Positions 55,184 to 58,887 of a stretch of 64,000 bases of DNA are shown here, piece by piece. The stretch comes from a virus, in the IMG/VR virus record IMGVR_UViG_3300032236_000718, positions 100,429-164,428 of that record. One strand, written 5' to 3'. The notes beneath the pieces are model-generated. The model was not told the DNA's origin. It saw only the letters and a list, made by a program, of their open reading frames with translations, and ran no database searches. Position 1 is the stretch's first letter. Each line of letters starts with the position of its first letter. The translations under genes were made by a program, and so were the position numbers.

Positions 55184-55582
55184 ATGTCGATATTAGAATC
55201 ATTAGTGGAAGTGAGAATTGGTGAAGAGGAAGACTTCCTAAAGATCAAAGAGACTCTAACTCGTATTGGCGTAGCCTCGCGTAAAGAGAAGAAGCTCTAT
55301 CAATCCTGCCATATCCTACACAAGCAAGGCAAGTACTATATCGTACACTTCAAGGAGCTGTTTGCCCTTGATGGTAAGCCAACAAACATAAGTGACGAGG
55401 ATCTTGGCAGACGAAACACGATCGTGCAGTTACTTGCCGAGTGGGAACTGATAATGGTCGTAGAGCCTAAAAAGTGCAGTGAGCCTAAGACCTCATTAAG
55501 CCAGATAAAGATTCTTCCTTACAAAGAGAAGAATGAGTGGGAATTAGTAACCAAGTATAACATAGGTCGTAAGAAGACCTAA
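55184..55582 (+). CDS. regA: translational repressor RegA
   Basis: DFLKIKETLTRIGVAS; LYQSCHILHKQGKYYIVHFKELFALDG. Confidence 0.96.
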   Translation: MSILESLVEVRIGEEEDFLKIKETLTRIGVASRKEKKLYQSCHILHKQGKYYIVHFKELFALDGKPTNISDEDLGRRNTIVQLLAEWELIMVVEPKKCSEPKTSLSQIKILPYKEKNEWELVTKYNIGRKKT

Positions 55583-56379: not shown

Positions 56380-56387
56380 TATAAATA
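56380..56387 (+). promoter_or_regulatory. late promoter TATAAATA
   Basis: Exact consensus; predicted +1 near the ATG at 56393. Confidence 0.7.
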
Positions 56388-56392
56388 AAACT

Positions 56393-56500
56393 ATGAAACA
56401 CTATACTCAGGAACTACACATGGTACACCAACCGAAACCAATTACAGTCTGCATGCTCGGTAATACCGAATACGCACGCTCATGGGGTAGTACCGCCTAG
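56393..56500 (+). CDS. putative attenuator leader peptide (35 aa)
   Basis: MKHYTQELHMVHQPKPITVCMLGNTEYARSWGSTA*; stop codon lies inside the antiterminator strand. Confidence 0.6.
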   Translation: MKHYTQELHMVHQPKPITVCMLGNTEYARSWGSTA

Positions 56501-56527
56501 TCACATCTCACATTGTTGGGTTTGACT

Positions 56528-56561
56528 AGGGCAGGAAAAAAGATTCCTGCCCTTATTTTTT
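56528..56561 (+). terminator. conditional intrinsic terminator (attenuator 1)
   Basis: AGGGCAGGAA/TTCCTGCCCT stem plus T-run; competing helix 56496-56503/56523-56530. Confidence 0.85.
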
Positions 56562-56564
56562 ATG

Positions 56565-56593
56565 TGTACATAACCTTGATAGTGGTTTATATT
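56565..56593 (+). promoter_or_regulatory. pre-replicative promoter TGTACA-N17-TATATT
   Basis: Predicted +1 near 56600, the 5' end of the large ncRNA. Confidence 0.75.
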
Positions 56594-56599
56594 AAGAAT

Positions 56600-57353
56600 T
56601 CAGGCAGCTCCTCCCTGAGTATAAGAGGAGCCCCTGGCTGGTACTGGCGAAAAACGCAGGTGGTTTCCAGCAGGGCAGAAGAGAGTTATCTCTTCATGGA
56701 TACTACACAGGGTACCGTGCATGGACGCATGTACTAATGGATGATAGGGCCATCTTGCCATCCTAAGACAACCTGATCAATGGCTGAGGAAGGGAAGCAC
56801 CCGACTCCGAAATTCGATTTTATGTAGTATCTTTGAAGAGATAATTGTTGTTTCGCTTATACAGGAGACTAATAGTGCGGAGTAATTAACCGAAACTGTA
56901 AACAAATAGGCTGGTGGAAGGGTGATGTATGAGCACCGCTCGGTCGGGAAGCGGCTGATCCTGAGGTTGGGTTTGATTCCCATGGTTTGTGTATTCTGTA
57001 TAAGCGTAACAACAATTTTGGACGGTATTGGCCAGTACGCTGATATCTGTATTCCCTGGCAGGAGTACGAACGAGGGATGCCAGTCCCTCTAGTAGCCAA
57101 ATAATTAATTCAAGAGACGTGTGGTCTACCACCCCATCGAACCTGTAGACATCTAGCCCTGCACTTATACGCCTGATGATTGCCTGTGATGGCATGAAAC
57201 ACCTCGGTGTCGCGTGGAGAAGCCCAAGCAGGGGAATAACTGGCTTCCTAGGATGGGGAACTTATTGTAGCAGTATGGCACTGCTTGTGAAGCACCTACG
57301 GAGATGGTAGGAATGCAGTCGGGCTTCATGCCGGTCTAACAAAACAAATGCCA
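56600..57353 (+). ncRNA. large, highly structured multi-pseudoknot ncRNA (~755 nt)
   Basis: No credible ORF; many long-range helices (e.g. 56686-56707/56823-56844, 56843-56866/56994-57017, 56600-56605/57171-57176). Confidence 0.75.
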
Positions 57354-57362
57354 AACTATTTT

Positions 57363-57436
57363 GCTGCCTTAGCTCAATGGTAGAGTACTGGATTGTGGCT
57401 CCGGAGACAGTGGTTCGATACCACTAGGCAGTACCA
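57363..57436 (+). tRNA. tRNA-His(GUG), no G-1, A73
   Basis: Cloverleaf, GTG anticodon, encoded CCA. Confidence 0.93.
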
Positions 57437-57439
57437 AAG

Positions 57440-57596
57440 AATTGCAGGTGTGGAAGCCTGTAATTACCTTCCCAGTTGTCCGTATAGCTTGGGGAAGGAT
57501 ATAGTCCGAGGGCGACTAAAGCTCCTCTTTATACGGACGTGACCCTTTGTCCTAAACCTGTCGGCACGTAGATCGACGCTGGAAGGAGTAACCAGC
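57440..57596 (+). ncRNA. structured pseudoknotted ncRNA candidate
   Basis: CCTTCCC/GGGAAGG stem whose loop GTCCGTATA pairs with TATACGGAC (57530-57538). Confidence 0.5.
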
Positions 57597-57608
57597 AATG
57601 AATTTTTT

Positions 57609-57696
57609 GGGGTGGCTGCTCAGATGGCGGATGGGCACCGGACTGTAAATCCGGCACATAGATACGCAGTTGGTTCGAATCCAACCCGCCCCACCA
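57609..57696 (+). tRNA. tRNA-Tyr(GUA)
   Basis: CCGGA-CTGTAAA-TCCGG arm, long variable region, CCA. Confidence 0.9.
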
Positions 57697-57705
57697 AAAT
57701 AACTG

Positions 57706-57734
57706 TGTACATATATCGATGTGCATGCTATATT
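57706..57734 (+). promoter_or_regulatory. pre-replicative promoter TGTACA-N17-TATATT
   Basis: Motif family member. Confidence 0.75.
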
Positions 57735-57775
57735 ATAAAAGTAAGGCATGGTGCCTTTATTATGGAGAAAGTGAA

Positions 57776-57970
57776 ATGTCTAAAGCAGAACGCGTACTTA
57801 ATGCCCTCTTGAATGGTCAGCAACTCTCAACAAAGCAGATCTCGACCCGTTATAAGGCAGCTAACCCAGCAGACGTGATCTATAAGATCCGTAACTGGGG
57901 TTACGAGGTCTCGTTGAATAAACAAAAGACTTCTTCTGGTACTTCATTCAAGTACTCAATCGCAGTCTAA
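57776..57970 (+). CDS. small winged-helix/HTH-like protein
   Basis: RVLNALLNGQQLSTKQI..RY...NP..VIYKIRNWGY; GGAG SD. Confidence 0.65.
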   Translation: MSKAERVLNALLNGQQLSTKQISTRYKAANPADVIYKIRNWGYEVSLNKQKTSSGTSFKYSIAV

Positions 57971-57994
57971 TACGTTAAGCTCCATCTCGGATGT

Positions 57995-58023
57995 AAAGAG
58001 GGGCTTAACGGCCCCTCTTTTTT
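57995..58023 (+). terminator. conditional intrinsic terminator (attenuator 2)
   Basis: AAAGAGGGGC-TTAACG-GCCCCTCTTT plus TTT; competing 11 bp helix 57973-57983/58000-58010. Confidence 0.85.
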
Positions 58024-58030
58024 ATTCTGA

Positions 58031-58106
58031 GAACGCTTAGCTCAGTTGGTAGAGCACAGGTCTTTTAAACCAGTGGTCGTGGGTTCGAACCCCACAGCGT
58101 TCACCA
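58031..58106 (+). tRNA. tRNA-Lys(UUU)
   Basis: Cloverleaf, CTTTTAA loop, CCA. Confidence 0.92.
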
Positions 58107-58112
58107 AAGTTT

Positions 58113-58218
58113 GCTTCCATGAACTAATTGCTTCTAGTACTGGTACCGGAAAAAAGCATTGCACAAGTTCTCCTCGTCGTGGGGAGCATGTAGGTTGGAA
58201 TCCTACTGGAAGCTACCA
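58113..58218 (+). ncRNA. tRNA-like element with ~40 nt D-loop
   Basis: GCTTCCA/TGGAAGC acceptor, GTAGG-TTGGAAT-CCTAC T arm, non-canonical anticodon loop. Confidence 0.55.
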
Positions 58219-58219
58219 T

Positions 58220-58295
58220 GGACACTTAGCTCAGTTGGTAGAGCAGGAGACTCTTAATCTCTTTGTCGCAGGTTCGATCCCTGCAGTGTCTACCA
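58220..58295 (+). tRNA. tRNA-Lys(CUU)
   Basis: Cloverleaf, CTCTTAA loop, CCA. Confidence 0.94.
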
Positions 58296-58411
58296 AATTC
58301 TATCCACGCACTGGTGCACCAGTTGCCCGCATCGCTCAGTAGATAGCTACTACAGAGGTCTGGAAGCAAATCGTGGAAGAAGGCGCCGATGGGTGAGGTG
58401 CCACCAGTTTC

Positions 58412-58488
58412 TGGCGCATAGCTCAGCTGATTAGAGCACACGACTGATAATCGTGAGGTCGATGGTTTAAATCCATCTGTGCCAACCA
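58412..58488 (+). tRNA. tRNA-Ile(GAU)
   Basis: CACGA-CTGATAA-TCGTG arm, CCA. Confidence 0.92.
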
Positions 58489-58492
58489 ATAC

Positions 58493-58569
58493 GCGACGTT
58501 CTTCTAATGGAATAGGAATCCTCCCTTTCAAGGAGATCAATATCGGTTCGAGTCCGATACGTCGCACCA
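58493..58569 (+). tRNA. tRNA-Glu(UUC)
   Basis: CTTTCAA loop, TTCGAGT T loop, CCA. Confidence 0.9.
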
Positions 58570-58571
58570 GT

Positions 58572-58648
58572 CCGGGCGTAGCGCAGTCTGATAGCGTACT
58601 TGATTTGGAGTCAAGGGGTCGTAGGTTTGAATCCTACCGCCCGGACCA
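58572..58648 (+). tRNA. tRNA-Pro(UGG)
   Basis: CTTGA-TTTGGAG-TCAAG arm, CCA. Confidence 0.92.
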
Positions 58649-58659
58649 ATAAATACATA

Positions 58660-58766
58660 TGGCGGGCTCACCTGTGGAAAATGTACCCGCCACCGCCGGA
58701 GCGAAATGGTGAGATGGGCTGCTGCCGCGGGGTTTGTTAGTTTTCCTGACACACAAAAAACTAACA
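58660..58766 (+). ncRNA. pseudoknotted ncRNA candidate
   Basis: TGGCGGG/CCCGCCA, CTCACC/GGTGAG, TGTTAGTTTT/AAAACTAACA; AATAAATA late-like promoter at 58648. Confidence 0.5.
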
Positions 58767-58773
58767 CTAATTT

Positions 58774-58849
58774 GCTCCCATCATCTAGCGGCCTAGGATA
58801 CCCGCCTCTCACGCGGATCACAGGGGTTCAAATCCCCTTGGGAGCACCA
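58774..58849 (+). tRNA. tRNA-Glu(CUC)
   Basis: CTCTCAC loop, CCA. Confidence 0.92.
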
Positions 58850-58858
58850 AAATAGTTA

Positions 58859-58887
58859 TGTACATATATGCACGACTGATATATAGT
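58859..58887 (+). promoter_or_regulatory. pre-replicative promoter TGTACA-N17-TATAGT
   Basis: Motif family member upstream of tRNA-Asn. Confidence 0.72.

Follow-up and report, generated by a model that had tools for sequence, protein, structure and literature searches.

The window analysed here covers the final 64 kb of a virus record of 164,428 bp from a T4-like phage, with genes for a T4-type clamp, a clamp loader and RegA; the phage has no close relative among cultured phages. We counted 29 tRNA/tmRNA genes in the phage genome. The phage encodes a permuted, two-piece tmRNA, the tag of which is of the alphaproteobacterial type (G000:C1:58259-58647, outside the window), and the phage tRNA-His has T at position -1 and A73. 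Together, these sequence traits, which we take to be alphaproteobacterial signatures, point to an alphaproteobacterial host. The tRNA array of the window contains non-coding stretches (56600-57353, 57440-57596, 58113-58218, 58300-58410, and 58650-58770), some of which look structured and none of which matched an Rfam family at gathering score.

The locus under study, with all features on the + strand, starts with a predicted sigma70-type promoter (TGTACA-17-TATATT, 57706-57734) directly ahead of a 64-codon gene (57776-57970; stop codon TAA at 57968-57970). This type of promoter motif has about 25 occurrences in the genome, and a promoter-like site is found at the same place in the relatives. 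The 5' UTR contains a small predicted hairpin (57743-57757), which recurs with a different sequence in most relatives, and a Shine-Dalgarno motif, GGAG (57764-57767), which most of them also have. The gene, near which regA is located (55184-55582), had been described as an HTH-like ORF ending at 57970; these coordinates hold, and the product matches the winged-helix family HTH_39 (PF14090) above the Pfam gathering cut-off (26.3 versus 21.3 bits). Its AlphaFold2 model (pLDDT, 92.8) consists of three helices and a beta hairpin (HHH-EE), and the nearest folds are winged helices, none of them at E <= 0.001. The gene differs from that of locus L025 by nine synonymous codon changes and one non-synonymous change. 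Translation of the gene is suggested by the Shine-Dalgarno motif and by conservation.

Two nucleotides past the stop codon begins the 5' strand of an antiterminator (57973-57987), followed by the loop CGGATGTAA (57988-57996), which is common but not invariant among the relatives. The next segment (57997-58010) is at the same time the 3' strand of the antiterminator and the 5' stem and loop of an intrinsic terminator (57995-58023), with the hairpin at 57995-58020 and the T-run at 58018-58023. The original prediction had proposed 11 bp with one G-U pair between 57973-57983 and 58000-58010, the latter being part of the 5' stem and the whole loop of the terminator. Both statements agree with the coordinates (the G-U pair is T57981-G58002), and three further pairs (57985-57987 with 57997-57999) extend the helix to 14 bp. 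Since the shared segment comprises the 5' stem and the whole loop of the terminator, the two structures are mutually exclusive, and they are nearly equal in energy (antiterminator, 57973-58010, -18.3 kcal/mol; terminator hairpin, -18.0 kcal/mol). An 11-bp run appeared in 0.29% of spacer shuffles (P = 0.003), and the antiterminator duplex has a z score of -4.7. Among the nine terminator-like sites of a genome scan, the strongest antiterminator is the one described here (z = -4.2; next, -2.1), and a search of the phage genome with our model R1 returned a single copy of the switch. Rfam searches in gathering and E-value modes matched only tRNAs and thus no known family for the switch. A T-box would have a specifier stem with a UGGN bulge, and a riboswitch would have a conserved aptamer in front of its expression platform; both were rejected on the basis of the missing Rfam family at gathering score, the start of the element 2 nt after the stop codon, and the variable loop. 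The last point also disposed of ideas that require an invariant loop, i.e., a CsrA-like site or tRNA pairing.

Downstream, the region 58031-58849 encodes tRNA-Lys(UUU), a tRNA-like RNA, tRNA-Lys(CUU), tRNA-Ile(GAU), tRNA-Glu(UUC), tRNA-Pro(UGG), and tRNA-Glu(CUC). As had been noted, tRNA-Lys(UUU) (58031-58106) begins just past the T-run, which ends at 58023. The next sigma70-type promoter is located at 58859, and a motif scan detected neither a sigma70-type nor a late (TATAAATA) promoter between the switch and this position; the switch therefore stands ahead of six tRNAs and the tRNA-like RNA. A terminator scan found no other terminator within 56565-57995, so that transcripts from upstream promoters also meet the switch.

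Protein searches and one motif search, the matches of which were all recovered independently by the protein searches, provided 137 distinct 3' regions of HTH_39 genes, most of them with a terminator shortly after the stop codon. Protein-only searches yielded 26 distinct variants of the switch, with the antiterminator always located 0 to 6 nt past the stop codon of an HTH_39 gene and with proteins of 64 to about 89 aa. In the alignment of these 26 variants, 90.5% of the antiterminator cells are paired (0 of 500 shuffles as high; slid controls, 36-64%), 7 of the 13 pairs have changes on both sides, and RNAalifold predicts the helix unprompted. Four of the eight terminator pairs compensate, and column 39 co-varies with its partner in both helices. 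Apart from column 39, the most telling changes concern the pairs of the terminator loop (columns 9-49, 10-48, 13-45, and 14-44), because the terminator does not constrain its own loop. The covariation check that had been proposed thus revealed compensatory and G-U changes in both helices. The RNA is 69-92% identical compared to 34-56% for the protein, and five of the eight relatives compared combine 80-92% RNA identity with 36-56% protein identity. The element of the window shows 88-92% identity to its counterparts in L031, L119, and L123, the proteins of which share 39-41% identity with ours and are 21 aa longer. Of five loci added later, three have the switch (47-62 bits), one has a decayed form, and one lacks it; generic terminators score 23-39 bits with model R1, and scores under about 40 are therefore uninformative. 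The antiterminator is decayed in L242 (L242:3820-4410), which has an additional tRNA-Lys(UUU) upstream of its HTH gene. We are highly confident that the element is a real, conserved RNA switch.

The two arms also form an inverted repeat beside the gene of a DNA-binding protein, which might suggest an operator of the HTH protein, or an accidental match to the G-rich stem of the terminator, instead of an RNA switch. However, changes from C-G to U-G in 11, 7, 4, 5, and 7 sequences at five pairs keep the RNA pairs but break the DNA symmetry; their frequency argues for RNA pairing rather than a DNA palindrome. In addition, the spacing of the arms varies, and the shuffling result speaks against chance. 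Hence, we regard this explanation as barely credible. An antisense promoter across the element was likewise rejected, since the spacing is not kept in the relatives.

About 100 HTH_39 relatives lack such an RNA. The HTH_39 relatives in the cultured phages DLP_6, Melnitz, and HTVC008M have neither the switch nor tRNAs. The exact motif was absent from GTDB genomes, in which a loose pattern retrieved four generic terminators with weak pairing, and a sequence look-up in other genomes found no look-alike. In IMG/VR, every match of the loose pattern at -10 kcal/mol or better is located behind an HTH_39 gene, and the others are generic terminators. The frequent absence of the RNA bears on the possibility that the HTH protein, RegA, or a host factor sets the switch by binding the antiterminator or its loop, which would result in a timed or autoregulated tRNA block. 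Such a protein would be at hand, as the linked gene encodes a winged helix and regA lies nearby, and the loop CGGATGTA is kept in most variants, including those with 39-41% protein identity. Nevertheless, the loop differs in L038/39/43/47, L126/127/129, L136/161, L197/198, and L241, in which the helix is kept, and together with the many HTH_39 genes without the RNA, this makes control by a protein unlikely. A separate small hairpin of variable sequence lies between stop codon and terminator in the switch-less group of L051, L057, L075, and L228.

The distribution of the antiterminator follows what lies behind the terminator. With fixed thresholds for an antiterminator and L038 refiled by eye, it is present in 24 of the 30 loci with a tRNA or structured RNA directly downstream, and visible weaker antiterminators exist in two of the six misses (L047 and L127). 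None of the 29 loci with a promoter directly after the terminator has one, nor has any of the remaining 17 loci. This pattern would be expected if read-through is required only for tRNAs that lack their own promoter. A weak tree of 86 columns requires eight changes, of which at least three are forced by well-supported branches; because of the shared ancestry of the loci and the poor resolution of the tree, the locus counts are not independent, and no P value is given. L210, L143/L172, L242, and L244 are exceptions with a terminator directly before RNA genes and no usable antiterminator, while L135 and L245 have retained the antiterminator but have a poor or lost T-run. The latter two would fit a fixed valve, i.e., an antiterminator that weakens the terminator by a set fraction and holds the ratio of tRNA to HTH mRNA constant without any signal. 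The nearly equal energies of the two structures and the loci L067 and L070, which appear to read through into tRNA genes via a poor T-run, are also in line with it. Yet a weak T-run would be cheaper than a covarying helix of 13-16 bp kept across proteins about 35-40% identical, and the helix lies inside the reach of the terminating ribosome in every variant. A valve of this kind therefore seems rather unlikely.

The interpretation that we favor with moderate confidence is a ribosome-coupled transcription attenuator, the leader of which is a complete, conserved protein gene and which would gate the six tRNAs. A polymerase coming from the promoter at 57706, or from promoters upstream, would transcribe the HTH gene, and a leading ribosome that keeps pace would come to sit on the stop codon and hold the first 5-10 nt behind it single-stranded. 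The lower part of the antiterminator could then not close over the terminator loop, the terminator would form, and the transcript would end near 58024. With a ribosome that falls behind, that stalls at any point of the gene, or that fails to load, the 14-bp antiterminator would form first, and the polymerase would read on into the six tRNA genes, tRNA-Lys being the first.

Folding models are consistent with this scheme. In a model of the nascent RNA, the antiterminator is complete once 58008-58010 have emerged and holds until about 58016, and the terminator takes over only when the RNA is free through 58018. At the point of termination, the last bases of the stem are still in the RNA-DNA hybrid, so that free RNA should read through. 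The footprint of the Escherichia coli ribosome reaches 5-10 nt past the stop codon. When 5-7 nt are held single-stranded in the model, the helix falls from -18.3 to between -11.7 and -9.2 kcal/mol, and the terminator can nucleate by 58014. With the last 2 nt of the stem withheld, the modeled probability of the terminator in the window is 0.00 for free RNA and rises to 0.90 and 1.00 when 5 and 7 nt, respectively, are blocked; the corresponding medians over 24 variants are 0.01, 0.90, and 1.00. These values come from equilibrium models, not from kinetics. When all of the 3' stem is available, most variants favor the terminator at equilibrium (median probability, 0.92), and read-through would consequently rest on kinetics. 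The comparison of folding with and without a ribosome block, as originally suggested, thus predicts that blocking 5-7 nt past the stop codon flips the RNA to the terminator.

The geometry fits as well, since the helix is within reach of a terminating ribosome in all variants. Proximity to the stop codon is not independent evidence, however, because any antiterminator must fit where the terminators of switch-less relatives also sit (21-27 nt from the stop codon). In most variants, the G-C core of the terminator starts 25-29 nt from the stop codon. A ribosome at the stop codon represses E. coli terminators closer than about 27 nt (PMC4824070), which implies that it is present there during transcription. 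At a distance of 25-29 nt, the terminator should accordingly be left mostly undisturbed by a ribosome that reaches the antiterminator. Ribosome-dependent attenuation is known to work in the alphaproteobacterium Sinorhizobium meliloti (PMC7968998). Of the logic first proposed for the locus, the conserved two-state element placed for a ribosome at the stop codon has stood, and the arguments from lysine codons and from a second copy have not.

The first of these arguments concerned the input. The seven lysine codons counted in the ORF are correct (two AAA and five AAG), but 15% of the 64-codon windows of the genome have seven or more. Lysine accounts for 8.1% of HTH_39 codons with the switch and 8.1% without it, AAA makes up only 18% of the lysine codons, and tRNA-Lys follows the HTH_39 gene in switch-less relatives as well. 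Nor are the amino acids of the gated tRNAs enriched in the leader gene, in which K, I, E, and P amount to 14 of 64 residues (22% versus 20% genome-wide). A dedicated sensor of lysine or tRNA-Lys, with stalling at lysine codons as the tuned input, could be seen in the first intact downstream tRNA, which is tRNA-Lys in 24 of 26 variants, and in the larger number of lysines among the final 20 codons when the gene has the switch (1.88 versus 0.95). This excess stems from a few clade-specific columns, though; there are no lysine runs, and the last lysine lies 6-20 codons from the stop codon. Positional specificity would moreover call for a protector (1:2) hairpin, and the antiterminator strand paired with the final 60 nt of the ORF no better than with synonymous recodings of them (mean z = +0.59). 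We consider a tuned lysine sensor quite improbable, even if PrrC and AriB target tRNA-Lys(UUU) and infection is rescued by phage copies of this tRNA (PMC11555353, PMC11464382).

In the absence of both a protector hairpin and a codon bias, the proposed attenuator is probably codon-agnostic, and any stall, lag, or block of initiation would open it. Loss of the host tRNA-Lys would still be one effective trigger, since every relative has 5-10 lysine codons. The attenuator might be part of an anti-defense feedback, a tentative idea that we hold to be possible rather than probable: anticodon nucleases (e.g., PrrC or AriB) would stall translation, the phage would read the speed of host ribosomes on an ordinary gene of its own, and a block with a cleavage-resistant tRNA-Lys(UUU) at its head would be turned on. 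This tRNA has a U31-A39 pair, C41, and an A28.A42 mismatch in the window, and 25 of 27 relatives lack U39, most having A39 or C39. A39 and C41 are also found in the tRNA-Lys of phage T5, in which these substitutions abolish or reduce the cutting of tRNA-Lys(UUU) by AriB (PMC12409363). By analogy, cleavage resistance of the tRNA in the window is a lead only.

The second argument was that the same geometry occurs twice in the array. The first site (56496-56553) is no clean copy: its upstream hairpin competes for no more than the outer 3 bp. The terminator core forms with a probability of about 1 under every modeled condition, whether or not a ribosome block is included. A predicted promoter directly follows at 56565. 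Due to the unaffected core and the promoter, this site cannot serve as a replicate, and the relatives make the case instead. It comprises a 26-codon ORF followed by the hairpin and terminator (window positions 56420-56553) behind a late promoter at 56380. The ORF uses 18 of the 20 amino acids, as do 0.3% of the genome windows, and it may well be a leader judging from its sequence. In L016, the ATG that lies further upstream (56393) is not in frame, which identifies the 26-codon form as the conserved one. DNA searches with this leader gave only near-identical copies.

The proposed attenuator resembles those of the trp/his type (E. coli trpL/hisL/pheL; S. meliloti trpL-trpE(G) [PMC7968998]) in its translated ORF, stop-adjacent antiterminator, and intrinsic terminator, and in the sign of regulation, with fast translation leading to termination and a lagging ribosome to read-through. 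As in that class, a terminator lies ahead of genes without a promoter in between, a conserved, mutually exclusive antiterminator is present, and the stop codon places the ribosome on its 5' strand. In contrast to the short leader peptides enriched in the sensed codons, the leader is a conserved winged-helix gene of 64-89 aa without a run of sensing codons, and no protector hairpin was found, so that no superattenuation is expected; the output consists of tRNA genes in a phage instead of an amino acid operon. Lacking the short, codon-biased leader and the protector hairpin, the switch is not a member of the trp-type class. Antibiotic-responsive attenuators that depend on ribosome stalling include vmlR and lmo0919. 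In attenuators of this kind, as in that of mef/mel (PMC4335068), slowed translation of an upstream ORF likewise opens genes that support translation, but those systems employ short arrest peptides and resistance proteins in Firmicutes, and the output here is tRNA. Stop-proximal repression and coupling of the pyrBI type (PMC4824070) share the principle that the position of the ribosome at the end of an ORF decides on termination, with the opposite sign: the ribosome breaks the terminator there and would break the antiterminator here. A pyrBI-type attenuator was rejected, as the terminator core lies at or near the limit of about 27 nt (PMC4824070) and the modeled block favors the terminator. The tRNA region of T5, which acts against host defense, likewise encodes a tRNA-Lys(UUU) with A39/C41 (PMC11555353, PMC11464382, PMC12409363); a strong promoter is credited in T5-like phages, and the accessible parts of these papers describe no conditional switch, in contrast to the candidate switch presented here. 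A literature search covering mainly freely accessible papers found no published account of the attenuation of phage tRNA genes.

These observations bear on the question of why phages carry tRNAs and whether they are produced constantly or on demand. A conserved switch of 55 nt behind a gene of 64 codons is a small, clonable test of on-demand tRNA supply. If the proposed mechanism is true, the 3' terminator of a normal gene becomes a sensor of translation by the addition of one complementary strand. As the family holds both states, a plain terminator with a promoter and a switch without one, this change can be studied.

The relatives show further peculiarities downstream of the HTH_39 gene. Immediately behind the terminator, many have a long hairpin RNA, constant in its base stem and variable at its top (about 50-200 nt; L119:709-805, L025:3618-3713, and L032:4960-5056, as well as L038, L131, L143, L241, L242, and L244), and weaker copies occur elsewhere in the arrays (L016:1903-2043). 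It had no Rfam match, was not found at the corresponding place in the window, and is possibly a processing stem of the RNase III type. Pairing of the antiterminator loop with this RNA was rejected, given the lack of covariation and the absence of the long stem from the window. In L031 (4150-4790) and L123 (840-1470), the long stem is directly followed by a tRNA-like 5' half, and an intact tRNA-Lys(UUU) lies about 630 nt further on; in L152, the terminator is directly followed by a broken Lys-like gene. L244 (562-590) has a plain hairpin about 4 nt past the HTH stop codon with a short T-run, which a ribosome would repress and which possibly follows the opposite logic. Finally, a match to Atu_At1 above the Rfam gathering score is located between two tRNAs of the array in L032 (5777-5884, minus strand).
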